A DNA stretch of 60,929 bases, counting the filler. It is 8 parts of 8 records of this genome, joined end to end, with 100 filler letters (N's around TTAATTAATTAA, not from the genome) between each part and the next. Parts side by side here need not be neighbours in the genome. Positions count along the whole stretch, not along the records: positions 23,392 to 31,342 come from SRR31156797_34887; 7 more parts are not named here. One strand, written 5' to 3'. The position numbers and the translations under genes were made by a program. Each line of letters begins with the position of its first letter. Positions within the stretch are counted from its first letter, which is position 1. This document shows positions 11,321 to 56,488 of the stretch, piece by piece. The notes under the pieces are model-generated. The model saw only the letters and a program-made list of their open reading frames with translations. It was not told the origin of the DNA and ran no database searches.

Positions 11321-11420
11321 NNNNNNNNNNNNNNNNNNNNNNNNNNNNNNNNNNNNNNNNNNNNTTAATTAATTAANNNNNNNNNNNNNNNNNNNNNNNN
11401 NNNNNNNNNNNNNNNNNNNN
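11321..11420. other. Artificial contig linker (N-run with TTAATTAATTAA)
   Basis: 100-bp N spacer with six-frame stop 12-mer. Confidence 0.98.
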
Positions 11421-18179: not shown

Positions 18180-18279
18180 NNNNNNNNNNNNNNNNNNNNN
18201 NNNNNNNNNNNNNNNNNNNNNNNTTAATTAATTAANNNNNNNNNNNNNNNNNNNNNNNNNNNNNNNNNNNNNNNNNNNN
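18180..18279. other. Artificial contig linker
   Basis: N-run with TTAATTAATTAA. Confidence 0.98.
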
Positions 18280-19794: not shown

Positions 19795-21453
19795 TTACTT
19801 TTTTACCCCCCTGAGGGTGATTTGGGCCAATCCCCGCGCAAAGCGCCGGACCAGGGACCTATCGACCGGATGCTCGAACACGGTACCGTCCCGGGAGAAG
19901 CCCCGGATTTTGTTGTCATGGAAAAAGCCTGCCAACAACCGTTTCCCCGCCGCCCTCCGGTCATGGGAAACCATGCCCCCACCGGGATCACTGGTCCGGC
20001 AGGGCCCGGGCAGCTCACCATCATCCACAAGGGCCTTCATGAAATTGAGTAGCCTGGCAAGCCTCAGCAGGGTCGCCGCCTGGAGCCGGGTGGTGGTGTC
20101 GGACACGGGAAAGGCGGTGGAGCGCATCCGGGTGAAGGCCGGGGGAAGCAGCCCCCTGTCCCGGCACAACTGAAAATCATGGCTTCCCGGGGCCGGGTAA
20201 AACACGGAAAAACCCACCAGGGTGCGCCTGGCCCCGAGGTACAAAAGATCTTCCACCGACTGTTCCGGTTTCTGGCCCGGCGCCGCGCCAATCAGATAGG
20301 AAACCGCCTCCATGGAAAAAGCCCGGGCAAGGTCCAGGCTCCGGTCAAGGGCTTTGCGCACATCGGGCCGTTTGAACCGGGCCAGCTGCTCCCTGGAGGT
20401 GGAACCCAAAGAGAGGTTCAAGGTCCTGAACCCCGCGGCCTTCATGGCGGCAACAATCTCCTCGTCCAGGGAGGGGGCATAGAGACCGTTCATGGCTCGA
20501 AGCTCCATATCCCTTCCCCTGAACCGGGTGGTGATCTCCTTCAGCAGGGAGAGGAACCATTTTTTGTCGAGGCTCAGGTTTTCATCCTCAAAATCGATGA
20601 ACCCCACCTCCCGGCGTTCCATTTGACGTTCAAGCTCCGCCATCACCGACGCCACGCTTCGCCGTCGAAAAGGGGCATGGGCGGAAGAGGCGCCCAGGCA
20701 ACAGTAGGTGCAGTGCATGGGACAGCCCCTGGCCGCCACAATGGAGATGCTGGCCCGCTGTTTCCGCTGATAGAATCCATGGTCCACCAGGTCTGTGGCA
20801 GGCAGGGGAACGGCGTCAAGGTCCTCCATCCATGCGGGCTCCTTCATGTGAAGGGAACCGCCACGGGTTCTGTAAACAATGCCCGGCACGTCCCCCAGGG
20901 GTGTATTGTTCCTGAGGGCCAGGGCAAGCCGGGGCATGGACACCTCCCCCTCCCCCCGGAGCACGAAATCCACGGCCTTGCACCCCATCACCGCTTCCGG
21001 AAAAAGGGTGGGATGGTGGCCGCCCATGACCACCCGGCACTCCGGCCAGAACCGCTTGATGGCCCGGGCCGTCTCGAGAGCCTCGTTGCAATAGGCCGTG
21101 AACAGGGAGGAGATGCCCACCAGAAAGGGCCGCTTCTCCCTTGCCAGGGTGCCCATGTGCTCGAAGCTGTAGCCGTAATGGCGATAGTGGTGAAACAGGG
21201 CAAAGGGAGACAGGTCGTTCCTGCCGTAGAATCGGTCCAGATCTCCCAGCTCCGGGGGCGGCGGGATGATTTTCGACTTGCCCACCGCCAGGGCGTCCGC
21301 CAGGGAAACGGAAAAGCCCGCCTGCTCGAGGGATGCGGCAATGCAGGCAAGGCCGTAGGGAACGGTCCGCTTGGCCGTGAGATAGAACTCCTCCATGGGG
21401 GGCTGGACAAGAAGAATATCCGCCCCGGAGGATGCCCCGGAACGGGTGCTCAA
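19795..21453 (-). CDS. Cobalamin-binding radical SAM protein
   Basis: PYGLACIAASL and GGHHPT..GEGE B12 domain; RGCPMHCTYC CxxxCxxC motif. TTG start overlaps the upstream stop. Confidence 0.85.
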   Translation of the reverse strand: MSTRSGASSGADILLVQPPMEEFYLTAKRTVPYGLACIAASLEQAGFSVSLADALAVGKSKIIPPPPELGDLDRFYGRNDLSPFALFHHYRHYGYSFEHMGTLAREKRPFLVGISSLFTAYCNEALETARAIKRFWPECRVVMGGHHPTLFPEAVMGCKAVDFVLRGEGEVSMPRLALALRNNTPLGDVPGIVYRTRGGSLHMKEPAWMEDLDAVPLPATDLVDHGFYQRKQRASISIVAARGCPMHCTYCCLGASSAHAPFRRRSVASVMAELERQMERREVGFIDFEDENLSLDKKWFLSLLKEITTRFRGRDMELRAMNGLYAPSLDEEIVAAMKAAGFRTLNLSLGSTSREQLARFKRPDVRKALDRSLDLARAFSMEAVSYLIGAAPGQKPEQSVEDLLYLGARRTLVGFSVFYPAPGSHDFQLCRDRGLLPPAFTRMRSTAFPVSDTTTRLQAATLLRLARLLNFMKALVDDGELPGPCRTSDPGGGMVSHDRRAAGKRLLAGFFHDNKIRGFSRDGTVFEHPVDRSLVRRFARGLAQITLRGVKK

Positions 21454-23291: not shown

Positions 23292-23391
23292 NNNNNNNNN
23301 NNNNNNNNNNNNNNNNNNNNNNNNNNNNNNNNNNNTTAATTAATTAANNNNNNNNNNNNNNNNNNNNNNNNNNNNNNNNNNNNNNNNNNNN
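23292..23391. other. Artificial contig linker
   Basis: N-run with TTAATTAATTAA. Confidence 0.98.
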
Positions 23392-24368
23392 AGGGCTATC
23401 CCGGCCAGGTCGAGCATAAGGGATATAATTCCAGCTGTAAAACCGGGCAGGTTAAACCTGAATTGGGTACTGATCGCGACGACAAAGGGCAGTAGAAAGC
23501 CTGCAAACAGGGCGTAGTGGCTCCAACCGGCCGCCGGACGGGTAAAAACCTTTCGTTGACCGAAAACATGCTTCAGAAGGCCTGAGAATCGCTCTCCCAA
23601 CCGGTCCAGACGAAACTCGGGGCTGCCTTGCCGCCAGAAAACCAGCTTCCGGCCCCATCCCCAGCAAAATACAGCCAGGGCGCCGCATAGCGTGACAAGG
23701 TATAAAATGTCTCCGGATAAGCCGCCCGAAAGGCCTGTCCCATGAAAACTTCCGAGAACAGCCCGCCCGTCCATTTCGGAATCGTGGCATTTATAACAGG
23801 CTGCATCGGTAATCGGTTCTTTTTCATTGTGCGCAGCCCGTCCCTGGTGGCAGTCAAGGCAGTTGGCTCGGGAATAGTCTTTTGCCAGGTCGGCTTTACC
23901 GTGTCCTTTGAGTCGAAAGGATAAAAGCGAGGCCCGGATGCCGCCGCCGGCTTTTTCAGGGTGGCAGGCCGAGCAAGTCGCAGCCTGGTTCCGGTCGGAC
24001 AGGGTCGAGGCGTCATCGGTTCGCGGCAGGATGAGATGTTTGCCGTGGCACTGGTGACACTGTGGCGCCTGTTCGGCCATATTCCCATGGGCGTTTCCTG
24101 ATTCGTGGCATTCAAGACAATTTACCGGAGTAACGGTTTTGCTTTTTTGGTGGGCAGGGTCTTCACCCGAGGGGTGGCAGTCCAGGCAGGACAGATCGCT
24201 TCCATGGACGGAAGCTTTGAAATCCGCGCCCTTGATATGCCGAGAGCTTTGAGCGCTGCCTATTTCGTGACATTTAAGACATTCAGACCCGGCCTCGGAT
24301 CCCATGGCTGGCTGAGAAATGCTGAGAATGAGAAACAGGGCTGCAATAATGACAAGCGGACGCATCAT
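23392..24368 (-). CDS. Seven-heme cytochrome c fused to a membrane domain resembling the N-terminus of ETF:quinone oxidoreductase (EMO/FadF/DUF224-type), 3'-truncated
   Basis: Signal peptide; CLKCH, CLDCH, CLECH, CHQCH, CSACH, CLDCH, CYKCH; then a TM helix and RLDRLGER..HVFGQRKV...GWSHYALFAGF. ATGA overlap with the etfA stop. Confidence 0.8.
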
Positions 24369-25384
24369 GACGATTCCTCTACACCGGCTGATTCCGCCTG
24401 TTCTGATTTGCCGCGGCAAAGTTTCAGCAGTTCCTGAAGCACTTCCGCAGCGTCCCCAACAAGGCCCAGGTCGGCGTAAGAAAATATGAGGGCCCTTGGA
24501 TCCGTGTTAATGGCCGCAACGGTCCGGCTGTCGGTCATGCCCACAGTGAATTCGTTGGCCCCGGATATACCGCAAGCCAAGAGCAGCCTTGGCGCCACGC
24601 TGACTCCGGTCTGTCCTATCTGGCGTTCGAAAGGCAAAAGCCCGGCGTCTATGACCGGCCTGGCCGCGCCCAGGGAAGCTTCCAGGAATTCGGCCGCATC
24701 CCTGATCAGGGGCATGCCGTCGGGAATAAGCCCGCGTCCCATGGCCACTATCCTGTCGGCCTGGTCGAGAGGCAAAGTGCGAAAGTCTCCCGGAATGCGC
24801 TTCACTGTCCGCAAGCGGTCCGAGTAAGGGGATGGGACAGGGTTAATAATTAATACATCGGCGGTCTTTTCGCCTCTGGATTCCCATCGCCCCAGAACTT
24901 GAGGCTCCCAGGTCAGGATGTTGATAATTGTTGGATCAAGAATCACTTCCAGGTCGAGGCGGCCGTCATGCAACGGCTGCAGAGCAATGAAATCGCCGTT
25001 TTGGTTTCGATCCAGACCCAAACATTTTGACACCAGACCTGCTTCAAGCAAAACCGCCAGCAGGGGAGCGGATATCGCGGTGGAGATGGAAAGACAGAAG
25101 ACCCAGGCCTGACCGGCTTCAAGGACAAGGGAAGCCGCGGTGCGGGCCGCGGTATCGGGAGCGTATTCAACATCATCCAAAATGCATTGATACACCCGGG
25201 AGACGCCGTATGGACCAAGAATATCGCCGGCGTTTTCAAGTTGGCCAAAGACAAGGGCTTCAATCGAAAGTAATGGATCAAAATTTTTAGCCCAGGCAGC
25301 GGCCTGTCCGGCAAGGGCCAGGGACGACGGCTCCAATTCGCCGTTTATCGATTCCAGAATAACGAGTACACCGCTTTTATTCAT
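24365..25384 (-). CDS. etfA: Electron transfer flavoprotein alpha subunit (divergent)
   Basis: ADRIVAMGRG, GAARP, RQIGQTG, GISGA and AINTDP..IF..ADLGLVGD motifs; ATGA overlap with the upstream OYE. Confidence 0.88.
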   Translation of the reverse strand: MNKSGVLVILESINGELEPSSLALAGQAAAWAKNFDPLLSIEALVFGQLENAGDILGPYGVSRVYQCILDDVEYAPDTAARTAASLVLEAGQAWVFCLSISTAISAPLLAVLLEAGLVSKCLGLDRNQNGDFIALQPLHDGRLDLEVILDPTIINILTWEPQVLGRWESRGEKTADVLIINPVPSPYSDRLRTVKRIPGDFRTLPLDQADRIVAMGRGLIPDGMPLIRDAAEFLEASLGAARPVIDAGLLPFERQIGQTGVSVAPRLLLACGISGANEFTVGMTDSRTVAAINTDPRALIFSYADLGLVGDAAEVLQELLKLCRGKSEQAESAGVEESS

Positions 25385-27345
25385 ATTTTGCGCCCTATTC
25401 GGTTGCCTTCGGCAACAGCCATGTCAATTCTTCGCGGCGCTGCTGCATCGCCGATGATATACAGTTCATTCACTTTTCCTTTTAGCTTGAGATAAAGGCT
25501 GTCGTCGGCTTCCGCGCCGCAAGCCAATACGATCCGGTCGTATCCTTCGAGTGTGACCATTTCGCCCGAGTAGACCTGCACGGCTTGGGCGGAAAGCCCG
25601 TTGATCATGAAAACGGCTGTATCATTTATAAAAGAGACCCCTTTTTCGGCCAGTCGCTTGCGTGAAAGCGAAAAATCCTGCAAGGGGCCGAGCCCCGAGC
25701 CTACAAAAAGAGACGGCGTGACCATGGTGACTTCATTTCCTTTATCAGCCAGGAACTCGGCCGTGGAAACAGCCTGGTGGTGACCGTCGTTGTCAACCAG
25801 CAGCACGCGGGAATTTGTAATTTCATATTCGCCAAGGAGAACCTGCCATGAAGATATAACTTCGGGCGGGCCGTAATCGCCTCCAAAAGGGGCGTTTTTC
25901 GGGCGGGCGCCCGCGGCGATTACAACTGCATCCGCTTGCTCTGCCAAAATTGTTTCCGGGTCAGCGTGGGCATTCAAACGCAGGTCTATGTTATTCAGCT
26001 TATCAACCTGGCTGATCAGCCACCTGGTAACGCCTTCGATTTCCTGGCGTCCGGGTGCGCGGGCGGCGATCATATTCTGCCCGCCGACATAACCGTTTTT
26101 TTCCATAAGCACCACTTCATGCCCACGCAGGGCCAGAATCCGTGAAGCTTCCAATCCGGCCGGACCGGCGCCGACAACCACTACTTTTTTGGGCTGGTCC
26201 GCTGGTTTGACCGTTCCCTCCCCCAATTCCACTTCCCGTCCGACAGCGGGATTCTGGATGCAGCCAAGTGAGTAACCCAATCCCATGCGGCCGATACAAC
26301 CCTGGTTGCAGGCAATGCAGTAACGGATATCCCCGGCACGGCCTTCCAATGATTTTTTTGGCAGTTCCGGATCGCAGATCAAGGCCCTAACCATTCCAAT
26401 CATGTCGGCATGGCCGTCGGCAATAATGTTTTCGGCCAGATGCGGGTCGTTTATTCGGTTGGTGGCAAAGACCGGCAGACTGACCTGCTCGCGAACGGCG
26501 GCGGCCAGGGGAACCGTGTACGCCAGAGGCGTGTGCATTGAGCCTTCAACTAAAAAGAGATTGAAGAAAGTGCCGATGCTCAGGTCGAGAAAATCAATGA
26601 GGCCCGAATCTTCAAGTGACCTGGCTATGCCGGGCGTATCAGAGATGGACAGGCCGCCCATGGGGTGCATTTCATCCGCATTGAGCCTGACGCCTACCGT
26701 AAAATCAGGGCCCACGGCGTTGCGAACCGCCTTGAGTACATTCAGACAGAACCTAAGCCGACCATCAAGGTCGCCTCCGTATTCATCATCGCGAAAATTG
26801 GTTAAGGGAGAAAGAAACTGTCGTATCAGGGAGCTGTGACCGATCTGGATTTCAATGCCGTCAAAACCTCCATCACGAACATATAGGGCCGACTGTGCGA
26901 AATAATCCACGCATTCCTGGATTTCCACATGTTCCATGGCCTTGGGATACTCTCTGAACAGTGGATCGGGCACGGATGACGGTCCCCAGACCGGCCGGTC
27001 GGTATGACTGGAATCGCCCTGCAGACCATTGTGGTTGAGCTGGGCGAATATCTTTGTGTCAGTCTCATGGACGACGTTGGTCAGTTTGCGATATCCCTTG
27101 ACCACATCAGGTTTAAAGGCGAAAACCAGCTTTTCGTAAGGGTGATCGGAGGGGTGAACCGACAATTCTTCTGTAATAATGAGTCCGGCGCCGCCTTTGG
27201 CCCTTTCCCGGTAATACATTATATGCCCGTCGCTGATTCTGTTTTCCCGGCCAAGGTTGGTCATGTGGGCGGAAAAACTGATCCGGTTGGGCACGACGGT
27301 GCGGCCGATTTGCAGAGGTGAAAACAGATATTGAAAGTCGGCCAT
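25381..27345 (-). CDS. Mycofactocin-system FadH/OYE family oxidoreductase (OYE2-like)
   Basis: TIM barrel (YYRERAKGGAGLIITE, RQFLSPLTN), CIACNQGC..C [4Fe-4S] motif, VGAGPAG dinucleotide fold; located in the mft operon. Confidence 0.85.
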   Translation of the reverse strand: MADFQYLFSPLQIGRTVVPNRISFSAHMTNLGRENRISDGHIMYYRERAKGGAGLIITEELSVHPSDHPYEKLVFAFKPDVVKGYRKLTNVVHETDTKIFAQLNHNGLQGDSSHTDRPVWGPSSVPDPLFREYPKAMEHVEIQECVDYFAQSALYVRDGGFDGIEIQIGHSSLIRQFLSPLTNFRDDEYGGDLDGRLRFCLNVLKAVRNAVGPDFTVGVRLNADEMHPMGGLSISDTPGIARSLEDSGLIDFLDLSIGTFFNLFLVEGSMHTPLAYTVPLAAAVREQVSLPVFATNRINDPHLAENIIADGHADMIGMVRALICDPELPKKSLEGRAGDIRYCIACNQGCIGRMGLGYSLGCIQNPAVGREVELGEGTVKPADQPKKVVVVGAGPAGLEASRILALRGHEVVLMEKNGYVGGQNMIAARAPGRQEIEGVTRWLISQVDKLNNIDLRLNAHADPETILAEQADAVVIAAGARPKNAPFGGDYGPPEVISSWQVLLGEYEITNSRVLLVDNDGHHQAVSTAEFLADKGNEVTMVTPSLFVGSGLGPLQDFSLSRKRLAEKGVSFINDTAVFMINGLSAQAVQVYSGEMVTLEGYDRIVLACGAEADDSLYLKLKGKVNELYIIGDAAAPRRIDMAVAEGNRIGRKI

Positions 27346-27349
27346 GATA

Positions 27350-29302
27350 TCAGACCTCTAATCCGGCAAGGGCGCCTTCTCTGACAGCCGAATCAATCCT
27401 GCGCGGGGCCACGCAGTCGCCGGCGCGCAGAACCTTTAGACCCATTGCCTTAAGCTCATTGTATAATGAATCATTTGGGATCTGGCCCATGACCGTGACC
27501 ACGGTGTCATAACCTGGCCAATTTTTTACGGCGCCGGTGTGTTTATCGATAGTTTCCACTACTGTTCCATTAATGGCCGTGACCAGCTGGTCGCAGTGGA
27601 TGGCAACGCCTCTGGAGTCAAGTTGTCCGCGAATGAAATTCAAATCTCCCTGTGGGGCCAGGTCAAGTCCGATAAAAAGTTCGCTGGACATCATTTCAAC
27701 CCGGCTTCCACGATCGGCGATGAAGACCGCTGTCAGGGCGGCCTTGTAGTGTCCGTCCTCGTCGATCAGCAGCACGTTTTTACCGACAGGATATTTTTCT
27801 TCAAGCACATCCCTTACGGTCAATACTTCAGGCGGACCGTATTTTCCGGGAACCGGTGCGGGATTAGGGATAGATCCCAAGGCCAGGATCACGGCGTCAG
27901 GCTCCAGGGCCATAATCGATGTAGCATCCATTTTTCTCCCATAGAATACAGGGACTCCGATTTTTTCCAGACGTGCGGCCATGCGGCCGACCATTACCCC
28001 AATTTCGGACCGTCCTGGTTGGATGCCCGCCAGGCGCGCCTGACCGCCGGGTTCGTCCTGCTCTTCAAAGATTAGAACGTTATGCCCACTCGATGCGGCA
28101 ATGTATGCGGCTTCAAGCCCGGCCGGCCCGGCGCCGACCACGACAATCTTTTTCTGCTTATCGGCTTTTTTACCTTTTGGCTTTTTGGATTCCCGGCCGG
28201 TCCGGGGATTTTGAATACACCCAATTGTTCGATCCCGATTGGTTCGCCCAATACAGGACTGGTTATCGTACACGCAGGCGGTTATTTCCGATTCACGGCC
28301 TTCTTGAATTTTTTTCGGCAGATCGGGATCGCAGATAAGCGGCCGCCGCCATGAGATCATATCGGCCTGCTTCGAGTCTAAAGCTTCTTCGGCCATTTCC
28401 GGCGTTGTAATCCTATTGCCCACGGCCACGGGCAGTGAAACTTTTTCCTTGAGCGATGCGGCCAGATCCAGGTTGAATCCCCGGGAATGGTGCATAGAAG
28501 CCCTGACCAGATGCAGATTATAGTAAGTGCCCACGGTTGTGCAGAAGAAGTCGACCAGTCCGGATTCCTGCAACCGTATGGCCGCTTGAAGAGCTTCTTC
28601 CCGGTCCAGGGCGCCGTAAAACATTTCATCAAGGCAGAAAACCGGCCCGATAGGGAAATCCGGCCCCACTGCACCCCGCACCGCCTTGATAATTTCGAGG
28701 GGGAAGCGGAGTCTGCCTTCCAGGTCGCCTCCGTAATCGTCGTCTCGCGTATTAGTGAGAGGAGAAAGAAACTGACGCAGAAGACTATCCGAGCCTATGC
28801 CGATTTCAATGCCGTCAAAACCGGCCTCTTTTAAGGCTTCGGCGCCTTGGGCCAGTGCTTCCGTAACTTCCCGTATTTCTTCCGAGCCCATTTTTCGGCA
28901 TACTTCACCGTAGACAATGTCAGAAACCGGGACCGGCCCCCAGGTCGGCAGGCGACTGATAGCTCCATGGCTCTGAAATCCGCGATGATTAACCTGGGCA
29001 AAGACGGCGGCGCCGGCGGATTTCAGGGTTTCAGCCAGGCGTTTCAAGTCGTCGACGCCGGCCGGCGTATAGGCTTCTATCATTTTTTCATACGGGCGAT
29101 CACCTGGATGATAGCTGATTTCGCCGACAACCACGGCGCCGCAGCCGCCATTGGCGCGGGCCTGATAATAGGCGGTCAGGGTTTCGCTCACCCGGCCGTT
29201 ATGGGCAAGGTTTGTTCTGTGCGGCCGGAAAATGATCCGGTTTTTGAGCCGAACGTTCCCCAGTTGGACGGGAGAGAGCAGATTTTTGTAGGAACCGGTC
29301 AT
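27350..29302 (-). CDS. Mycofactocin-system FadH/OYE family oxidoreductase (OYE1-like)
   Basis: Paralog of the downstream gene: RQFLSPLTN, CVYDNQSC..C, VGAGPAG; starts 1 nt after the mftC stop. Confidence 0.82.
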   Translation of the reverse strand: MTGSYKNLLSPVQLGNVRLKNRIIFRPHRTNLAHNGRVSETLTAYYQARANGGCGAVVVGEISYHPGDRPYEKMIEAYTPAGVDDLKRLAETLKSAGAAVFAQVNHRGFQSHGAISRLPTWGPVPVSDIVYGEVCRKMGSEEIREVTEALAQGAEALKEAGFDGIEIGIGSDSLLRQFLSPLTNTRDDDYGGDLEGRLRFPLEIIKAVRGAVGPDFPIGPVFCLDEMFYGALDREEALQAAIRLQESGLVDFFCTTVGTYYNLHLVRASMHHSRGFNLDLAASLKEKVSLPVAVGNRITTPEMAEEALDSKQADMISWRRPLICDPDLPKKIQEGRESEITACVYDNQSCIGRTNRDRTIGCIQNPRTGRESKKPKGKKADKQKKIVVVGAGPAGLEAAYIAASSGHNVLIFEEQDEPGGQARLAGIQPGRSEIGVMVGRMAARLEKIGVPVFYGRKMDATSIMALEPDAVILALGSIPNPAPVPGKYGPPEVLTVRDVLEEKYPVGKNVLLIDEDGHYKAALTAVFIADRGSRVEMMSSELFIGLDLAPQGDLNFIRGQLDSRGVAIHCDQLVTAINGTVVETIDKHTGAVKNWPGYDTVVTVMGQIPNDSLYNELKAMGLKVLRAGDCVAPRRIDSAVREGALAGLEV

Positions 29303-29303
29303 G

Positions 29304-30320
29304 TCAGGCCGCGACCAGCCCCAGGCAGCGCATGCATTCCGGGTCAGGCTGGTTTAATTCATTATAAGTATGATAGGCCACTGCCGGACAACCGCCCCTG
29401 CAGGATTCGAAACGGTAGCAGGATTCACAGGAACCGACTTCCATGTTCCGAAACTCGTCGAAGATTTTAGACTGTCGCCAGATATCGCTTAACGACTGCT
29501 GTCTGACGTCGCCGGCCTTGAACTCCGGTTCCTGGAGAAAAGCACATGGATAGACTTCGCCTGTCGGCGACAGACAACAGGTCATTTTGGCGGCGCCGCA
29601 CATATCCAGGCCCTGGCGGCGCCGTTTTTCCGATGTCAGGGAAAAAAATGAATCCCCGGTGCGGATCATATCGTGTTCGCTAAGCCAGCCGGCGAAAGAT
29701 TCTAGCTGTTCCTTATCAGGCTTGAGTTGATCGTTGTTGGATTTGCCCCGGCCGGACGGGCGGAAGCGGGACACCCGAAGGTCCGCGGAATAATTCGCGG
29801 CCAGGGATCGCAAATCATCTAGCTGGGGATAGCTTTGTTTGGTCAGAACAGTGTTGAAGCTGAAGCGGACGCCTTGTCCCGCCAGGTTTTCCGCGGCCTG
29901 AAGAACCTTGAGGTAAGTCCCCTGCCCTCGTATTTCGTCGTTGACTGCGGCCGTGGCCCCATCCAGACTGATCTGCAAAAACAGCATGGACATTTTTGAA
30001 AGGGTTGCGGCCAGATCGGCGTCAATGAGAGTGCCGTTTGTGCTCACGCAGGCGACTATGCCCTTTTCATGAGCGTATTTCAACAGGTCGAGGAAATCCG
30101 GCCTCATGAACGGTTCGCCGCCGCCGATGTTTATTTGAAAGACGCGCAACCGGGCCAGTTCATCCAATACTTTAATGCATTCTTCCGTAGTCAGCTCATC
30201 TGTTGCAGCCGGCCCCGAGGCGGACAGGCAGTGACGGCAGAACAGGTTGCACTTAAAGGTGATTTCCCAGGTCAGATTCACAGGCGCCCGTAAACCGCTT
30301 CGTGCGAGGTTAGAACTCAA
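29304..30320 (-). CDS. mftC: Mycofactocin radical SAM maturase MftC (SPASM)
   Basis: APVNLTWEITFKCNLFCRHCLS, QINIGGGEP, QISLDGAT, RFRPSGRG and SPASM cysteines CGAA..CC..VYPC..CESC..CRGGC..PDPEC; TTG start with AAGGAG RBS. Confidence 0.9.
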   Translation of the reverse strand: MSSNLARSGLRAPVNLTWEITFKCNLFCRHCLSASGPAATDELTTEECIKVLDELARLRVFQINIGGGEPFMRPDFLDLLKYAHEKGIVACVSTNGTLIDADLAATLSKMSMLFLQISLDGATAAVNDEIRGQGTYLKVLQAAENLAGQGVRFSFNTVLTKQSYPQLDDLRSLAANYSADLRVSRFRPSGRGKSNNDQLKPDKEQLESFAGWLSEHDMIRTGDSFFSLTSEKRRRQGLDMCGAAKMTCCLSPTGEVYPCAFLQEPEFKAGDVRQQSLSDIWRQSKIFDEFRNMEVGSCESCYRFESCRGGCPAVAYHTYNELNQPDPECMRCLGLVAA

Positions 30321-30573
30321 TTATCACTCCTTTGTGTTTCAGGTTTTCCAGGGCTTTTTTAAGTCCGGCTGCTTTTTTAAAGGATTCCGGGCCTTGCTCC
30401 ATTTTCTTGTCGACCCATTCCCTCAGGGTAATATCGCTAGTAAAAAACTCTTCGCCCAACAACTTTTTGGAAGCGAGGAAGAAAAGCCTGGGGCCGTGCA
30501 TGGAATAGAACAGCAGCCCGAAATCTTCTTCACGGACCTGGGCGCCAGGCGCCAGTCTGTATTTGGTATCCAT
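30310..30573 (-). CDS. mftB: Mycofactocin RRE peptide chaperone MftB
   Basis: YRLAPGAQVREEDFGLLFY..PRLFFL and ALENLKHKGVI match the MftB/PqqD-like pattern; lies between mftA and mftC. Confidence 0.85.
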   Translation of the reverse strand: MDTKYRLAPGAQVREEDFGLLFYSMHGPRLFFLASKKLLGEEFFTSDITLREWVDKKMEQGPESFKKAAGLKKALENLKHKGVIIEF

Positions 30574-30697
30574 TATCAATCCTTAGTTCGGCGCGGCCGG
30601 AGCAGCAGCGGTTCAAGTATCGGCTTCTTTGGTCAGGCGCCAAATACTTATTTTGCATTCCATAAATAATTGGCAATACGATCCATTCCATTATTTT

Positions 30698-30769
30698 GCA
30701 GGTTGGGTTAGCAAAGCCTAACCCAACACCTTTATATTGGTGGGTTACGTTCCGCTAACCCAACCGACC
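30698..30769. repeat. Inverted pair of REP-like palindromes (REPIN-like)
   Basis: GCAGGTTGGGTTAG-CAAAGC-CTAACCCAAC (30698-30727) and an inverted copy whose minus strand reads GGTCGGTTGGGTTAGCGGAACGTAACCCACCA (30738-30769). Confidence 0.7.
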
Positions 30770-30784
30770 TAGGATGCGGCCGGA

Positions 30785-30922
30785 TCAATAAACGCCGCAG
30801 ATTCCGTCAATGGCCATTTCTTCGATTTCGATCTCCTCGATCGCAAACGCGTCTTCCTTACTTTCACTTGCAGCTTCCGGTAGTTCGACAGCATTTTCGT
30901 TCAATTTACGTTCGTTGTTCAT
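30785..30922 (-). CDS. mftA: Mycofactocin precursor peptide MftA (45 aa; missed by ORF track)
   Basis: Manual translation MNNERKLNENAVELPEAASESKEDAFAIEEIEIEEMAIDGICGVY*; GGAGG RBS upstream; C-terminal IDGxCGVY hallmark. Confidence 0.95.
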   Translation of the reverse strand: MNNERKLNENAVELPEAASESKEDAFAIEEIEIEEMAIDGICGVY

Positions 30923-30962
30923 ATGGTTCCTCCACTTGTTTTATTTAATTACAGACGCCGGC

Positions 30963-31342
30963 TTAGTCCCATTTACAGACCCAACGCCCGTTAATTTCCT
31001 TATGTTCCATGGCCTCGGCCACCTGGTTGATTTCTTCCAGGTCAAAATAACGTGTGGTCAATTTACCCAGGGGAATATCGCCCCGGACGACCATATCGGC
31101 CATGCGCGGGATATCCACTGATGTGCGGATATTGCCGTACAGGGTGCCAATCACGGATTTACCGTGATGCGTCAAAAAGTTAAGCGGCAGTTCGGTCATG
31201 GCTTCTTCCGGGCAGATGCCCACGACCACCAGCTTGCCGAAAGGCGCCAGGGCCCAGAAGGCCTGGTGAATGGCCCCGGGATTGCCGACAACCTCAAAAA
31301 TATGTTGGGCGCCCCATCCCCCGGTAAGTTCCTTCACCTTCG
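30963..31342 (-). CDS. Zn-dependent (MDR) alcohol dehydrogenase, 5'-truncated
   Basis: ELTGGWGA..FEVVG, GKLVVVG, GTLYG and LEEIN C-terminal MDR motifs; ends 40 bp before mftA. Confidence 0.8.
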
Positions 31343-31442
31343 NNNNNNNNNNNNNNNNNNNNNNNNNNNNNNNNNNNNNNNNNNNNTTAATTAATTAANN
31401 NNNNNNNNNNNNNNNNNNNNNNNNNNNNNNNNNNNNNNNNNN
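31343..31442. other. Artificial contig linker
   Basis: N-run with TTAATTAATTAA. Confidence 0.98.
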
Positions 31443-37120: not shown

Positions 37121-37220
37121 NNNNNNNNNNNNNNNNNNNNNNNNNNNNNNNNNNNNNNNNNNNNTTAATTAATTAANNNNNNNNNNNNNNNNNNNNNNNN
37201 NNNNNNNNNNNNNNNNNNNN
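37121..37220. other. Artificial contig linker
   Basis: N-run with TTAATTAATTAA. Confidence 0.98.
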
Positions 37221-45052: not shown

Positions 45053-45152
45053 NNNNNNNNNNNNNNNNNNNNNNNNNNNNNNNNNNNNNNNNNNNNTTAA
45101 TTAATTAANNNNNNNNNNNNNNNNNNNNNNNNNNNNNNNNNNNNNNNNNNNN
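45053..45152. other. Artificial contig linker
   Basis: N-run with TTAATTAATTAA. Confidence 0.98.
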
Positions 45153-48629: not shown

Positions 48630-51017
48630 ATGATGCAGACCAGGAGAGACTTTCTAAAAACCACAGCTGCCCTTTCCGCAGCTTCAACAATTGGTATGCA
48701 GCTGTCGCTGAACAAAGGCAGTATTGCAAAGGCGGAAGAAGGTATTTCATGGCATCGAGGCAGTTGCAGGCTTTGCGGAGTCGGGTGCCGGTTGGAGTTG
48801 GGAGTAAAAAATGGTGTGCCCGTTGGTTTGCGCGGTGTTGCAGATGCCCGTACTAACTATGGTTACCTTTGCATGAAGGGTATGCATTTCTGGAAGTGCA
48901 TGCGCCATAAGGACAGATTGATTAAACCACTGTATCGTGAAAAAAAATCAGACAGTTTTAAAGAAATTTCCTGGGATAAAGCACTTGATATTGCAGCTGA
49001 AAAATTTGCTGATACTGTAACCAAATATGGTAACGACTCTGTGGCTTACTACGGTTCTGGTCAGTCTTTGACAGAGGAAACTTATCTTTTTCAGAAAATA
49101 ATGCGAGGTGGGCTGCAGACAAATAATGTGGAAGGGAATCCTCGGCTTTGCATGGCCAGCGCTGTGGGCGGTTACCTGACCTCGTTTGGTGCAGACGAAC
49201 CCATCGGCGGCTATGCGGATATTGAAAAGGCATCTTGTTTTTTTATCATCGGTTCCAATACTGCAGAAGCACATCCCGTACTTTTCCGCAGGCTGATGCG
49301 GCGTAAACTTGATAACCCAGAGGTAAAGGTAATCAATGCTGATCCTAGGTTTTCTCAAACCTCACGCATTGCTGATAAGCACCTGCAATTTAAGCCTGGC
49401 ACGGATCTTTCCCTGCTCAACGCCATGGCCAATGTGATTGTTGAAGAAAAACTCTATGATGAGGAGTTCTTTTCCAACTATGCTACTTTTCGCCAGGGAA
49501 AAGAAAAAAAGATTGTTTCCTTTGAAGATTTTAAACAGTTTGTAGCGCCTTATACTCCAGAGAAAGCTGCCAAAAAATGCGGAGGCAATATCACTGCCGA
49601 TGATATTCGGCAGGTGGCTCGCTGGTTTGCCACTTCTAAAGGAACCATGACCTTGTGGACAATGGGCATTAACCAGAGAAAACAGGGCGTTTGGGCTAAT
49701 AACCTTATTCATAATCTTCATATTCTTACCGGCCAGTTGCTCAAAGAAGGGGCCGACTCTCTATCCCTGACTGGACAACCAAACGCCTGTGGCGGGGTTC
49801 GTGAAGGTGGAGGCTTGTGCCATATTTTGCCTGGTCACCGTCCTGTAGCCAAAGAAAAACTTCGTAATCAGGTTGAAGAGGCTTGGGGGATACCCAAAGG
49901 AAGGATACCACCGAAACCAGGTCTGCATACCATGGCCATGTTCACCGCCATAAATGAAAAGAAGGTAAAGGCTATCTGGGTTAATTGTACAACTCCAGTA
50001 CAGAGCCTGCCGAACTGCGACCTGTATACTCAAGGTATGGCTAGTGATGATTGTTTTATGGTGTGTACGGATATTTTTCCAACCAGGACAACTGAACTCG
50101 CTAATCTAATTCTACCTACAGCGTTTCATTTCGAAAAAACAGGAGTGTATGGTTGCACGGAAAGGAGATCGCAGATCACGGTAAAGGCGGTGGATGCACC
50201 TGGCGATGCAAAACCTGAAGTGTGGATAGTGCGTGAATGGGCAAAAAAACTTGCTAAAAAACTCGATGACCCGGTTATTGCCCAGTGTGTGCAGCCATTT
50301 GATGGTTTGGAAGAAGATTATGCCCTCCCTAAAGCTATTTGGGATGAATATACTCAGAAATTGACTAAGAACAGGGATAATGATCTTCGCGGTGCCACCT
50401 ATGATGTAATGCAGCAGATGGCAGACGGTGTACAGTGGCCGGCCCCCACGGAAGCCTTTGCCCTTACAGGAGGAACCGTGAAAAAATTTGTCAAAGGGTC
50501 TGACCCGATGGCAGATACAGAGTCAAAAGACGATAAACCCTACCAGTTTTACGGTCCAGCCCATGCAGACCGAAAGCTCTGGATCTGGCTTCGTCCCCAG
50601 GCTGAACCTGCTGAAATCCCAGATGCGGAATATCCATTCTATCTTTCCACCGGCAGAATCATCGACCACTGGCATACCATGTCAATGACTGGGAGAGTGC
50701 CTGAGTTGTTACGAGCTAACCCTTATTCCTATGTGGAACTTAATCCCAAGGATGCCGCCAAGCTTGGAATAAAACCTGGTGATATGGTGGAAATTAAGTC
50801 ACGCCGGGGCGTTAATGTAATGCCGGCAAAGGTGTACGAAGGACCGATTGAAGGAATGGTGTTTGCTTACTGGCATGACCAGGACCAGAGTCGCATGATC
50901 AATAAGGTGACCAAGGATGCATATGATCCTGGATCAAAGGAACCAGAGTTTAAAATATGCGCGGTGCAGGTACGGAGAGTCTCTGGACCAAAACCGCTTA
51001 AGCCGTTTATTCTTTGA
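48630..51017 (+). CDS. napA: Periplasmic nitrate reductase catalytic subunit
   Basis: Tat signal TRRDFLK; CRLCGVGC..C [4Fe-4S]; GSGQ, RLCMASA, WTMGINQ, SLTGQPNACG, HWHTMSMT and SKEPEFK motifs. Confidence 0.93.
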   Translation: MMQTRRDFLKTTAALSAASTIGMQLSLNKGSIAKAEEGISWHRGSCRLCGVGCRLELGVKNGVPVGLRGVADARTNYGYLCMKGMHFWKCMRHKDRLIKPLYREKKSDSFKEISWDKALDIAAEKFADTVTKYGNDSVAYYGSGQSLTEETYLFQKIMRGGLQTNNVEGNPRLCMASAVGGYLTSFGADEPIGGYADIEKASCFFIIGSNTAEAHPVLFRRLMRRKLDNPEVKVINADPRFSQTSRIADKHLQFKPGTDLSLLNAMANVIVEEKLYDEEFFSNYATFRQGKEKKIVSFEDFKQFVAPYTPEKAAKKCGGNITADDIRQVARWFATSKGTMTLWTMGINQRKQGVWANNLIHNLHILTGQLLKEGADSLSLTGQPNACGGVREGGGLCHILPGHRPVAKEKLRNQVEEAWGIPKGRIPPKPGLHTMAMFTAINEKKVKAIWVNCTTPVQSLPNCDLYTQGMASDDCFMVCTDIFPTRTTELANLILPTAFHFEKTGVYGCTERRSQITVKAVDAPGDAKPEVWIVREWAKKLAKKLDDPVIAQCVQPFDGLEEDYALPKAIWDEYTQKLTKNRDNDLRGATYDVMQQMADGVQWPAPTEAFALTGGTVKKFVKGSDPMADTESKDDKPYQFYGPAHADRKLWIWLRPQAEPAEIPDAEYPFYLSTGRIIDHWHTMSMTGRVPELLRANPYSYVELNPKDAAKLGIKPGDMVEIKSRRGVNVMPAKVYEGPIEGMVFAYWHDQDQSRMINKVTKDAYDPGSKEPEFKICAVQVRRVSGPKPLKPFIL

Positions 51018-51130
51018 TTTTTTGATGAGGGCACGTAAAGGATTGTGCGCTTCGAGTTATGAGCCACATTAAACGTACAGGGCAAGAGTCATGGGTGACT
51101 TCTGCCCTGGATTGTTAAACAGGAAGAGCT

Positions 51131-51436
51131 ATGCCTATCGGTGGAGTAATAGTATCGATTCGTCCTCAAGAAAGTGTTGCAGCCTTGGCCGAACTTAATA
51201 ATTTGCCAGAGGTAGAGGTACATGGCGTTGATGAACAGAGCAATGTTGTAGTTGTTCTGGATACCTCAACCTCTGCTGACATGGAAGCGTTAATAAAGTC
51301 CCTGAATAAGAAACCGTGGGTCCTTCATGTAAGCCTCACCTATCTCAATGTTGAGGATGAGGCAGAAAAGATTGCCAGCGGTGACGATGTTCCCAGAGTT
51401 TTTGGCAGCCGCAAACACGAAAAAGAGCGGCAATGA
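51131..51436 (+). CDS. napD: NapD chaperone
   Basis: MPIGGVIV..LPEVEVHG..VVVLD; follows napA. Confidence 0.85.
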   Translation: MPIGGVIVSIRPQESVAALAELNNLPEVEVHGVDEQSNVVVVLDTSTSADMEALIKSLNKKPWVLHVSLTYLNVEDEAEKIASGDDVPRVFGSRKHEKERQ

Positions 51437-52020
51437 ACCGAAGATTTGTTCTTAAGTCTTTGGGGGCACTTGCAGGTGTCGTGCTGCTGCTGAAAGTGGA
51501 GGACAGTAGCGGTTCTTCGTTATTTCGTTCTCCTGTAGAGACTAACCACCTCCGGCCTCCAGGTGCTGTAAGCGAAGATTCTTTTGGAGGCACCTGTATT
51601 CGTTGTGGAAGGTGTGTGGAAGTCTGCCCATACAGATGCATCACACTGCTTGATATTCGTAATGGGGTGTATGCCGGGACACCATTGATAGATGTCCAGA
51701 ATATACCCTGTTATCTTTGTATGAAGTGTGTTGAGGTATGCCCCACTGGGGCATTAGTGAAGGTTAGTCAGCAGGCAACCCGTATGGGGACAGCCATTAT
51801 AAATAGGTTTACCTGTGCGGCGTGGTCAGGGACAACTCTCTGTCGGACATGTTACGATAAATGCCCATTTAAGGGGGCTGCCATCTATCTTGACCAGCTG
51901 AAACCCGTTGTTGTGGACCAGGCATGTACAGGCTGCGGTCTGTGCACCTATGCCTGCCCGGTTACAACCTCTGACGGCCTGAAGGCAATCAATATAGATC
52001 CTTCTTTTCAAAGGGCGTAA
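51433..52020 (+). CDS. napG: NapG ferredoxin-type protein
   Basis: Tat-like NRRFVLK, LRPPGA and four Cys cluster motifs. Confidence 0.85.
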   Translation: MNRRFVLKSLGALAGVVLLLKVEDSSGSSLFRSPVETNHLRPPGAVSEDSFGGTCIRCGRCVEVCPYRCITLLDIRNGVYAGTPLIDVQNIPCYLCMKCVEVCPTGALVKVSQQATRMGTAIINRFTCAAWSGTTLCRTCYDKCPFKGAAIYLDQLKPVVVDQACTGCGLCTYACPVTTSDGLKAINIDPSFQRA

Positions 52021-52034
52021 ACACGGTATAACAG

Positions 52035-52862
52035 GTGACTTTCAAAATAAAAAAGAGCTGGCGTTATAACGCGTTACGAAGGGGCATTCTAGGATGTTCC
52101 TTTCTCCTGGTCGTTGTTAACCCGTTGCTGGTCTTTTATTTTGATTTTTCGTTTATTCAAGGATGGTATCAATCTTTAGGTGTAGGGAATCTGTGGTTTG
52201 TTTCCCCCTTGGAGGGGATGGAACGTTTTCTTGTCACCCGTTCATTTCATGTACCTACTCTTATTGGTATGTCGCTGCCGCTCATCCTTGCCTTTCTCCT
52301 TGGCAGGGTTTTTTGTTCCTGGATCTGTCCTGTTACTTTTTTAAATGAACTCCTTGACGCTGTACGCAGGAAAATTTTTAAAAATAAACATCTCCAGGAC
52401 AGGCTGGTTTTGTCGAGGCAACTACTTTGGTACGCCCTTATCGGCGAGATTGTTTTGTCGATGATTATTGGTATGCCCCTTTTTGTTTTTATTTCACCCC
52501 CAGGACTTGTAGGCCGAGAAGCAATGATGCTTATTTTCTTTCATAAGGTGGCCTTGGAAGGTGTGGTGATTTTAGTCGTCTTGCTTTTGGAGCTGCTGAC
52601 CCGTAGAATGTATTGCCGATATTTTTGTCCTTTGGGGGCATTACTGGCTTTGGTCGGCAGTCGCCGCAAACTGCTTGTTACCCGCCAGGAACAAGAATGT
52701 ACAGAATGTCGTAGATGTGACTTAGTCTGCCCCATGGGTATCCTGCCCAGCAGCGGCGAATCAGTTACGGCCTATTGCTGGAACTGCGGCGAATGTGTTG
52801 ACTGTTGCAAGGAGGGTGCTCTAGCCTTTACTTGGCGCGGGTCAATATCCTCATCCCACTAA
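52035..52862 (+). CDS. napH: NapH quinol dehydrogenase membrane subunit
   Basis: GRVFCSWICP, YCRYFCPLG and two CxxCxxCxxxC motifs. Confidence 0.87.
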   Translation: MTFKIKKSWRYNALRRGILGCSFLLVVVNPLLVFYFDFSFIQGWYQSLGVGNLWFVSPLEGMERFLVTRSFHVPTLIGMSLPLILAFLLGRVFCSWICPVTFLNELLDAVRRKIFKNKHLQDRLVLSRQLLWYALIGEIVLSMIIGMPLFVFISPPGLVGREAMMLIFFHKVALEGVVILVVLLLELLTRRMYCRYFCPLGALLALVGSRRKLLVTRQEQECTECRRCDLVCPMGILPSSGESVTAYCWNCGECVDCCKEGALAFTWRGSISSSH

Positions 52863-55193: not shown

Positions 55194-55293
55194 NNNNNNN
55201 NNNNNNNNNNNNNNNNNNNNNNNNNNNNNNNNNNNNNTTAATTAATTAANNNNNNNNNNNNNNNNNNNNNNNNNNNNNNNNNNNNNNNNNNNN
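55194..55293. other. Artificial contig linker
   Basis: N-run with TTAATTAATTAA. Confidence 0.98.
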
Positions 55294-56488
55294 TGTCGCG
55301 GGCGGTCCACTTTTTACCGCGGAATCGGAAGAGTTTGGAGATGTGGAACATCTTGTGCTCGACGAAGCGGAACTTACCCTGCCGCTGTTTCTTGAGGACC
55401 TGAAAAACGGCCGCCCGAAAAAGATTTACAGGGCGTCCGGCTTCTGCGACCTTCGCAGCACCCCCATCCCCCTATGGCGTTTGATAAGCATAAAGAAATA
55501 TGCATCCTTGAGCCTTCAGTTTTCAAGAGGATGCCCGTTCAACTGCGAGTTTTGCAACGTAACCATTCTTTTCGGTCATCGGGCGCGCGTGAAAACATCC
55601 CAACAGATTATCGCGGAACTGGATTATTTTTATGATGCCGGTTGGCGCGCTAGTATTTTTTTTGTTGACGATAATTTTATCGGAAACAAGCAATACCTGA
55701 AAACACAATTGCTGCCGGCCCTGATCGAATGGCGTAAAGGTAAAAAGGGATGCGTTTTCTTTACGGAAGCTTCGATCAATCTTTCCGACGACCCGGATCT
55801 CCTGGATATGATGGTTGAGGCCGGATTCGATTCCGTTTTTATAGGTATTGAATCGCCTGATGAGGCCTGTCTCACGGAATGCCGGAAAACTCAGAACAAA
55901 AACCGGGATCTTCTTCATAGTATCAAAACGATCCACCGTGCCGGAATACAGGTGATGGGCGGATTTATAGTCGGTTTCGACAGCGATACGCCGTCCATTT
56001 TCCAGCGGCAGATCGATTTCATTCAGAAAAGCGGAATCGTAACCGCAATGGTTGGAATGCTGCAAGCCGCCCCGGGTACACGGCTCTATGCACGACTTCA
56101 AAAGGAAAACCGTCTGGTTCGCGGGTTTTCCGGAGATAATGTCGATGGGAGCACCAATATCATCCCCCAAATGGGACTGGATAGGCTTGAAGAAGGGTAT
56201 CGATCGATCATGAAACATATCTATTCTCCCAATAACTACTACCGGCGGGTCATACAATTTCTTAAGGAACTCAAGACGCCCGATATCACGGCGCCTATGG
56301 ATGTCCAGCGATTCCTGGCCTTCTTCCGATCCATTATTTTGCTTGGCGTCTGGGGCAAAGAACGTCTCCATTTCTGGCAATTACTATTCTGGACTCTGTT
56401 CCGTAAGCCCAGGCTGTTACCGATGGCCGTCACTCTTGCCATATACGGCCATCACTACCGGAAAATATGCGATTTATATGTTCCATAG
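55294..56488 (+). CDS. B12-binding radical SAM protein with DUF4070-type C-terminus, 5'-truncated
   Basis: AGGPLFT, QFSRGCPFNCEFC, FVDDNFIGN and GGFIVGFDSD motifs. Confidence 0.85.

Follow-up and report, generated by a model that had tools for sequence, protein, structure and literature searches.

The closest described counterparts of the locus reported here are the actinobacterial mftABCDEF clusters of Mycolicibacterium smegmatis and Mycobacterium tuberculosis (Rv0691A-Rv0696), and to our knowledge mycofactocin has been studied experimentally only in aerobic actinobacteria. In the pathway as reported, MftB binds the precursor peptide MftA, MftC decarboxylates its terminal Tyr and cyclises it onto Val, and the product AHDP is released (PMC7491314). 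Oxidative deamination then turns AHDP into premycofactocin, a keto-amide whose midpoint potential lies near −255 mV and which is next glycosylated by MftF (PMC7491314), and MftG is described as the link between mycofactocin and respiration in mycobacteria (PMC11778925). The DNA analyzed here is a window of 60,929 bases in which eight contigs have been joined end to end, and one of these segments (positions 23392-31342, 7951 bp, 54.4% G+C) carries a 45-codon gene on the minus strand at 30785-30922 with mftB and mftC behind it. We consider it very probable that this gene is a genuine mftA, the first gene of an mftA-mftB-mftC operon, and that it encodes a mycofactocin precursor. Because the window consists of separate segments that have been joined, only 23392-31342 is usable as physical context for mftA. 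This contig is a piece of an uncultured delta-proteobacterial (Desulfobacterota-type) genome, a lineage known mainly as strict anaerobes, and all of its genes lie on the minus strand, tightly packed or overlapping.

The mftA open reading frame (ORF) begins with an ATG (30922-30920) and ends in TGA, and its translation finishes in AIEEIEIEEMAIDGICGVY, with the stop directly after the last eight residues, IDGICGVY. The original prediction, made from the letters of this DNA, had placed a 45-residue MftA precursor at exactly these positions without stating the strand, which is minus. A Shine-Dalgarno sequence GGAGG, also predicted, can be read directly at 30933-30929 (minus strand), where the 6-nt spacer AACCAT separates it from the ATG. 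The leader was correctly described as acidic, since the peptide contains 13 acidic residues (11 Glu, 2 Asp) and 3 basic ones (2 Lys, 1 Arg), and the terminal Val-Tyr is intact as claimed. In layout, the peptide has an acidic leader that varies, followed by a C-terminal block that is conserved and in which Val44-Tyr45 is the core. Two NCBIfam models recognize it, NF040489 (“variant-type mycofactocin precursor”) with 33.7 bits over a cut-off of 30 (E 3.2e-8) and TIGR03969 (“mycofactocin precursor MftA”) with 29.8 bits over a cut-off of 25 (E 4e-7), and in a six-frame survey of the whole window it was the sole peptide ending in G[VI]Y before a stop or containing DGxCG. Upstream of the gene, 40 nt separate its start from the stop codon of a truncated gene for a Zn-type alcohol dehydrogenase; mftB lies 205 nt downstream on the same strand, with mftC next.

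Both proteins expected to act on this peptide are encoded directly downstream. The PqqD-like peptide chaperone gene mftB (30310-30579, minus strand) scores 53.9 bits on TIGR03967 against a cut-off of 33 and overlaps mftC by 11 nt, and mftC (29304-30320, minus strand), which encodes a radical S-adenosylmethionine (SAM)/SPASM maturase of 338 residues, scores 389.3 bits on TIGR03962 against a cut-off of 265. Across 35 aligned sequences the MftC cysteines of CxxxCxxC and of SPASM never vary, other SPASM maturase models give the window protein at most 167 bits, and its nearest solved structure is PqqE (6c8v, E 1e-22). The cluster is therefore a mycofactocin cluster, as had been proposed, and the further proposal that the peptide alone fixes this identity does not hold, because MftC and MftB already fix it. 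As a matter of annotation, mftB has been listed from a TTG at 30579, and an ATG two codons on, at 30573, with AAGGA 6 nt upstream of it, is more likely to be the start. Some of the surveyed loci described below have a further, longer radical SAM/SPASM gene (L002:1488-2720 and L006:1485-2717) and others second copies (L029, L032, L041, L047); the 410-residue protein of L002 reaches 99.5 bits on TIGR03962, far below the cut-off.

The resemblance to the actinobacterial clusters includes a short precursor whose core is Val-Tyr and which ends in IDGxCGVY, the MftB chaperone, the radical SAM/SPASM enzyme MftC, mftA-mftB-mftC as the order of the genes, and a neighboring alcohol dehydrogenase of putatively mycofactocin-linked type. 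The differences are an Ile in place of Met at the fifth residue from the end, a leader that is longer and very acidic in a peptide of 45 residues as against the 31 given for MftA of M. smegmatis (PMC7491314), and a host that is an anaerobe of a delta-proteobacterial lineage. In addition, mftD and mftE are not nearby, and two flavoenzymes of the TIGR03997 family, the alpha subunit of an electron transfer flavoprotein (ETF) and a cytochrome follow in the window. Among the mycofactocin papers listed, at the level of titles and the opening lines of abstracts, only Haft 2011 treats the delta-proteobacterial system.

The original prediction regarded the peptide as hidden, and in the sense of database knowledge this is not the case. 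In a protein database search, 145 of 150 candidates matched the mftA peptide at E <= 0.01, and the closest is 93% identical and likewise 45 residues long. The 120 relatives listed all carry the EEIEIEEMAIDGICGVY-type block, with N-terminal leaders that cannot be aligned, and their C-terminus is IDGICGVY in all except one, which reads IDGVCGVY. NCBI and JGI already label close relatives, from metagenome-assembled genomes of Deltaproteobacteria, Desulfobacteraceae and Thermodesulfobacteriota, either as “variant-type mycofactocin precursor” or as “mycofactocin precursor.” The mftA of the window is an ordinary member of a peptide family already recognized by curated databases.

The same holds for the Ile at the fifth position from the end, which had been flagged as a departure from an actinobacterial consensus of IDGMCGVY. 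That consensus is indeed the reported actinobacterial pattern (PMC11162802), but the Ile is ordinary for its lineage, being present in 72 of the 72 mftA genes compared (51 of Val-Tyr type, the window included, and 21 of Ile-Tyr type) as well as in 119 of the 120 listed database relatives. It falls on the single position of the last eight MftA residues that Haft 2011 reported as not invariant (PMC3023750).

Since the peptide search was biased towards peptides that have 5-mers in common with the query, loci were also collected through MftC, independently of the peptide. The window MftC was aligned with 34 relatives and the alignment scanned against one genome per GTDB species, which yielded 353 pattern matches, 188 of them encoding an MftC relative; the best 80 were kept with 10 kb on each side (loci are cited by L number where one has to be singled out). 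Of these 80, 78 are delta-proteobacterial or from Thermodesulfobacteriota and two are named only “Pseudomonadota bacterium.” Their MftC proteins are 55-67% identical to that of the window, so the species set does not hold a species-level representative of the contig, and an MftC with 97% identity was found only in a metagenome-derived cluster. An ORF ending in CG[V/I]Y and a stop lies just upstream of mftB on the same strand in 70 of the 80 loci, which settles in its favor the point on which the original prediction had said it could fail, conservation of the peptide upstream of homologous mftB genes. In six of the other 10 loci (L005, L008, L014, L019, L047, and L074) the contig breaks off at mftB or mftC or no more than about 170 nt away from one of them. 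Second mftA copies were seen 7-9 kb from the main cluster in two loci, at L026:2554-2724 (plus strand) and L039:1039-1170 (minus strand), and the latter ends in INGICGVY, with Asn for the otherwise invariant Asp.

Codon usage at the C-terminus indicates what is being conserved. In 51 mftA genes of Val-Tyr type, the window included, the residues D, G, I, C, G, V, and Y were each found in 51 of 51, and in these columns all four codons for Gly and all four for Val occur, together with three for Ile, both for each of Cys, Asp, and Tyr, and all three stops. Because the residues are fixed while the synonymous codons vary freely, the peptide must be selected as protein and the ORF translated; mftA is under selection at its C-terminal amino acids. 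Haft 2011 likewise reported conservation of MftA at the level of protein rather than DNA (PMC3023750).

Behind mftC the contig continues with genes that differ from the actinobacterial set. Two paralogous flavoenzymes come first, one of 650 residues beside mftC (27350-29302, minus strand), which at 720.3 bits falls below the TIGR03997 cut-off of 793, and one of 654 residues (25381-27345, minus strand), which at 855.4 bits exceeds it. The name of this model is “mycofactocin system FadH/OYE family oxidoreductase 2,” and the first paralogue is below its cut-off in L044, L002, and L030 as well as in the window. The nearest solved structures to the second paralogue are 2-naphthoyl-CoA reductase and 2,4-dienoyl-CoA reductase and, at E 1e-57 to 1e-64, trimethylamine dehydrogenase and histamine dehydrogenase. 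Trimethylamine and histamine dehydrogenases are amine-oxidizing Fe-S flavoproteins that pass their electrons to ETF. By eye, and in the window pair, the Fe-S cluster motif reads YCIACNQGCIGR in the second paralogue and ACVYDNQSCIGR in the first, which has Asp where the second Cys ligand stands in its partner. An ETF alpha-like subunit follows (24365-25384, minus strand), with 123.8 bits on NF038209 (mft_etfA), below the cut-off of 240, and 86.5 and 45.2 bits on the Pfam models ETF_alpha and ETF. The last gene, cut by the contig end, encodes a multihaem c-type cytochrome with a C-terminal membrane part (23392-24419, minus strand), identified by the Pfam domains Cytochrom_c3_2, Cytochrome_C7, and Paired_CXXCH_1.

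At the opposite end of the contig, also cut, lies the 3' end of the Zn-type alcohol dehydrogenase gene (30963-31342, minus strand, 124 codons), whose product, a C-terminal fragment of 124 residues, gives 56.5 bits on TIGR03451 and 48.1 bits on TIGR03989. Homologues of this dehydrogenase occur in 17 of the 80 loci, and the full-length proteins of L044 and L030 score 317-329 bits on TIGR03989, below its cut-off of 440. In the relatives the operon reads from a sigma-54 regulator through an alcohol dehydrogenase (Zn- or Fe-type), an aldehyde oxidoreductase and mftABC to two TIGR03997 genes, etfA, a cytochrome, an HdrD/TfrB-like Fe-S protein, and etfB. L030 has HmcABC instead of the HdrD/TfrB-like protein. 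In L002 the operon is otherwise syntenic, but a pair consisting of a Phd-family antitoxin and a VapC-like toxin (L002:11060-11781) is inserted behind mftC and ahead of the first FadH/OYE gene.

If the mycobacterial system is taken as a guide, MftB would bind the 45-residue peptide through its conserved C-terminal block, and MftC would oxidatively decarboxylate Tyr45 and cross-link it to Val44, so that the peptide would end in a lactam (AHDP). After being cut off, the lactam end would be oxidized to a keto-amide redox cofactor serving dehydrogenases with tightly bound NAD, and the alcohol dehydrogenase encoded upstream is a candidate partner. A housekeeping peptidase is proposed for the release of the modified end, because neither MftE nor MftD is encoded nearby; in M. 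smegmatis an mftE mutant is reported still to make the cofactor, by way of “an unknown peptidase” (PMC7491314). The two FadH/OYE flavoenzymes would probably either carry out the oxidative deamination or re-oxidize the cofactor, and their electrons may pass through the co-encoded ETF to the membrane module of cytochrome and HdrD-like protein. The downstream genes could replace MftD without oxygen, or could re-oxidize or use the cofactor as a counterpart of MftG, or could do both.

Several observations weigh against this picture and should be considered together. Although the suggested check with MftA family models succeeded on NF040489 and TIGR03969, the Pfam model for MftA (PF23709) gives only 20.7 bits against a gathering score of 27 (E 4.8e-4). 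Three of the surveyed loci with ample upstream DNA (L004, L020, and L023) have no recognizable mftA within 700 nt or anywhere in the locus, and a fourth, L043, whose mftB and mftC are intact, has upstream of them, in the place of mftA, no more than a remnant-like ORF of 13 codons, MEEIRIDGTRGIY (L043:9685-9724), which ends in IDGTRGIY. This ORF is without a leader, reads Thr-Arg at positions −5 and −4 where Ile-Cys is otherwise invariant, and could be either a decayed gene or a minimal form. No match to MftD (TIGR03966) or MftE (TIGR03964) appeared when 236 proteins taken from the window and from the 80 loci were scanned, so the steps that textbooks place between the MftC product and the cofactor are not encoded locally. 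MftF (TIGR03965) is also not on the 7951-bp contig, which is uninformative, as the contig stops 5915 bp after mftC. Finally, it is equally conceivable that the TIGR03997 enzymes reduce some substrate in a mycofactocin-dependent way, and the roles suggested for the flavoenzymes, the ETF, and a hairpin behind mftA (described below) are drawn from context and analogy.

The scope of the MftD and MftE result deserves to be set out. The 236 proteins comprise two sets from the window (11 and 27), 48 proteins encoded in three full loci, 48 representatives of common ORF clusters, and 102 representatives of rare ones, so that the loci were covered through cluster representatives and within 10 kb on either side of mftC. 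The 48 common representatives were drawn from 53 clusters seen in at least 3 loci, the other five being MftB, MftC, FadH/OYE, a histidine kinase, and an aldehyde dehydrogenase (the last two annotated through their L002 members), and the 102 rare representatives span 170-470 residues, a range outside which 199 of the 308 rare clusters fell. Where mftF lies near +9 kb, the end of the operon is outside the DNA covered. In 15 loci mftF starts 8-167 nt after the end of the mftC match (11 of Ile-Tyr type and 4 of Val-Tyr type), and neither mftD nor mftE was found beyond it in these loci or in L009. By tblastn, mftF is present in 20 of the 52 loci with TIGR03997 genes, mostly 8.2-9.0 kb after mftC and behind etfB. 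Haft 2011 described MftF as always co-occurring with MftB and MftC, and the MftD family as not universal (PMC3023750).

The step normally carried out by MftD is where the anaerobic lifestyle of these organisms becomes relevant. Deletion of mftD is reported to abolish the cofactor (PMC7491314), and the MftD step has been described as aerobic (PMC8406134). An oxygen-requiring step of the MftD type is unlikely in lineages known mainly as strict anaerobes. Strict anaerobes of the Desulfobacterota may instead both make and use mycofactocin by a novel, oxygen-independent route, in which the TIGR03997 pair, the ETF, and the cytochrome/HdrD-like module replace both MftD and the MftG link, and we put this forward tentatively, as a conjecture that is more apt to fail than to hold. 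If it were true, a single operon would encode the precursor, its maturation, and the re-oxidation of the cofactor.

It is possible, if short of probable, that the pathway is instead wholly of the textbook kind, with mftD and mftE elsewhere in the genome, mftF further down, and the FadH/OYE enzymes, ETF, and cytochrome acting as users or re-oxidizers of the cofactor, in effect an anaerobic counterpart of MftG. Only 7951 bp are linked to mftA and the relatives were covered for 10 kb on either side, and mftF does appear at the far end of the operon where the flank is long enough. The name of TIGR03997, moreover, is that of a “mycofactocin system” oxidoreductase and not of a biosynthetic enzyme, and MftG is reported to tie mycofactocin to respiration in mycobacteria (PMC11778925). 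On the other side, mftD and mftE were found in none of the 80 loci, including the 15 with mftF directly after mftC, several of which have kilobases of DNA beyond it, and a step described as aerobic (PMC8406134) is a poor fit to strict anaerobes.

A more radical alternative accepts the peptide, MftB, and MftC as real and holds that the end product is not mycofactocin, the peptide remaining intact or being processed differently; one possibility would be that the invariant Cys is used as in peptides of the ranthipeptide type, a class of peptides made by ribosomes and modified after translation, with the FadH/OYE enzymes acting on the peptide itself. The missing MftD and MftE matches among the scanned proteins would suit this idea, as would the reported filing of mftD-less clusters as ranthipeptides by antiSMASH (PMC11162802) and the fact that the Cys is invariant in 72 of 72 genes, yet is not part of the cofactor as described (PMC7491314). 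However, the Cys is reported to be equally invariant in actinobacterial MftA (PMC3023750), the window MftC is an equivalog-level match far above every other SPASM maturase model, neither the Val-Tyr core nor any invariant residue is lost, and mftF, whose product glycosylates the released cofactor, ends this type of operon in 20 of 52 relatives. Production without mftD also has one published precedent, Saccharopolyspora: S. erythraea has a cluster without mftD and makes mycofactocins (PMC11162802, PMC9679996), reported as methylmycofactocins (PMC9679996). We therefore regard a product other than mycofactocin as improbable.

The Saccharopolyspora precedent resembles the window in that the 17 clusters reported have mftA, mftB, and mftC, are missing TIGR03966, and possess TIGR03997 (PMC11162802). 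It differs in that the host is an aerobic actinobacterium, the precursor ends in IDGMCGVY, a single TIGR03997 gene stands in place of the tandem pair, and mftE is present, six of the seven genes being reported as similar (PMC11162802).

That the ORF at 30785-30922 is a chance open frame or the shadow of an opposite-strand gene can be set aside as having next to no probability: it has just 45 codons, does not pass the Pfam MftA model, and is overlapped by a plus-strand ORF of 103 codons (30810-31121), but the two NCBIfam models, the 145 relatives, the synteny in 70 of 80 loci, and residues that stay invariant while synonymous codons vary freely already refute it, and the plus-strand ORF also runs antisense through the dehydrogenase gene and, like a 41-residue alternative-frame ORF at 30769-30894 (minus strand), matched no Pfam family.

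The surveyed loci with an mftA upstream of mftB fall into two groups, of Val-Tyr and of Ile-Tyr type. In 21 loci (L056, L059-L069, L071-L073, and L075-L080) with MftC 55-59% identical to that of the window, the mftA just upstream of mftB ends in VDGICGIY, so that Ile replaces the Val that is cross-linked, and the predicted cofactor would carry one extra methyl group. By tblastn, mftF directly follows mftC in 11 of these 21 loci, and larB, larC, or larE, which we take to be nickel-pincer cofactor genes, are present in 19 of 21 as against 0 of the 49 Val-Tyr loci. TIGR03997 homologues, found in 52 of the 80 loci, show the opposite distribution (43 of 49 Val-Tyr loci, 0 of 21 Ile-Tyr loci).

Scores on NF040489 follow the same division. 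Three GIY peptides reach 50-52 bits and one VDGICGVY peptide 45, as compared with 33.7 for the window, 36.2 for L044, and about 25 for L051 and L048 (24.9 being the lowest) among peptides ending in I/LDGICGVY. The “variant” model is centered on the VDGICGIY subgroup and not on the type found in the window. The window peptide passes this model and its close relatives carry the model's name at NCBI, but GIY peptides never occur with TIGR03997 and mostly occur with lar genes, whereas the window keeps the canonical Val-Tyr core; it sits between the two models.

The 205-nt spacer between mftA and mftB holds a 65-nt imperfect hairpin (30701-30765, minus strand), found as an inverted repeat and by folding, that begins 20 nt after the mftA stop. 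Its 28-nt arms are 82% complementary, and it folds at −39.9 kcal/mol (z −5.46), with none of 200 shuffled sequences as stable. It has no U-tract, and as the contig returned no Rfam match at E <= 1, it belongs to no described RNA family. The gap between mftA and mftB in the relatives ranges from −2 to 362 nt (median 72), and of the 34 genes, that of the window among them, in which this gap is 80 nt or longer, 16 have a stable fold after the stop (z < −2; hand count, mononucleotide shuffles), which makes a stem-loop behind the precursor gene common and not universal. We infer, by analogy, a transcript-stabilizing or partial-attenuation stem-loop that raises precursor transcript levels, and it would probably keep the precursor transcript abundant relative to those of the enzyme genes.

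Other candidate signals around mftA were examined and rejected. The 12-mer GGTTGGGTTAGC within the hairpin is not a dispersed repeat, having 6 matches with at most 2 mismatches where 4.7 are expected, and its exact copies are the two arms. A sigma-70 promoter and terminator scan of 30200-31342 returned nothing on the minus strand; the terminator-like signal it reported at 30702-30727 belongs to the plus strand, which encodes nothing there. A sigma-54 −24/−12 consensus gave 26 matches against 31.8 expected and none near mftA.

Biosynthesis of pyrroloquinoline quinone (PQQ) by PqqA, PqqD, and PqqE offers a broader parallel, in which a small precursor, a PqqD-type chaperone, and a SPASM radical SAM enzyme likewise lead to a peptide-derived redox cofactor. 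The precursor, the cross-link, and the product differ, and the PqqE model gives the window MftC 145 bits against a cut-off of 381.

By itself the peptide brings nothing novel, as it is already recognized by curated models and the databases contain hundreds of C-termini nearly identical to its own. What makes it useful is that it anchors a complete-looking mftABC that is under selection in uncultured anaerobes of the sulfate-reducer type, and the point of interest is how such organisms finish and recycle the cofactor without oxygen, MftD, and MftE. The recurrent operon of dehydrogenase, mftABC, two FadH/OYE genes, ETF, and cytochrome/HdrD-like module, with or without mftF, provides a concrete place to study anaerobic finishing, and Desulfosarcina variabilis (L044), a cultured carrier of the operon, makes an experimental test practical.

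The remaining parts of the window concern other DNA. The joined contigs vary in G+C content from 0.35 to 0.58 and are separated by spacers that each consist of N44, 12 AT-only bases, and N44 (11321-11420, 18180-18279, 23292-23391, 31343-31442, 37121-37220, 45053-45152, and 55194-55293); ORFs that run into these spacers are artefacts. Neighboring segments have no physical linkage and probably derive from different organisms. The contig to the right of the mft segment, with 35% G+C and genes for lpxB, surE, and an extracytoplasmic function (ECF) sigma factor, is clearly from another organism. B12-binding radical SAM proteins are encoded on two other contigs, at 19795-21453 (minus strand) and 55343-56488 (plus strand), neither of them linked to the mft contig; their best models are P-methyltransferase, BchE, and HpnJ-type, all scoring far below cut-off. 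A further contig of 44.6% G+C, unrelated to mftA, carries a periplasmic nitrate reductase-like set at 48630-52862 (plus strand), made up of a NapA-like protein (654 bits, below cut-off) together with NapG-like and NapH-like proteins.

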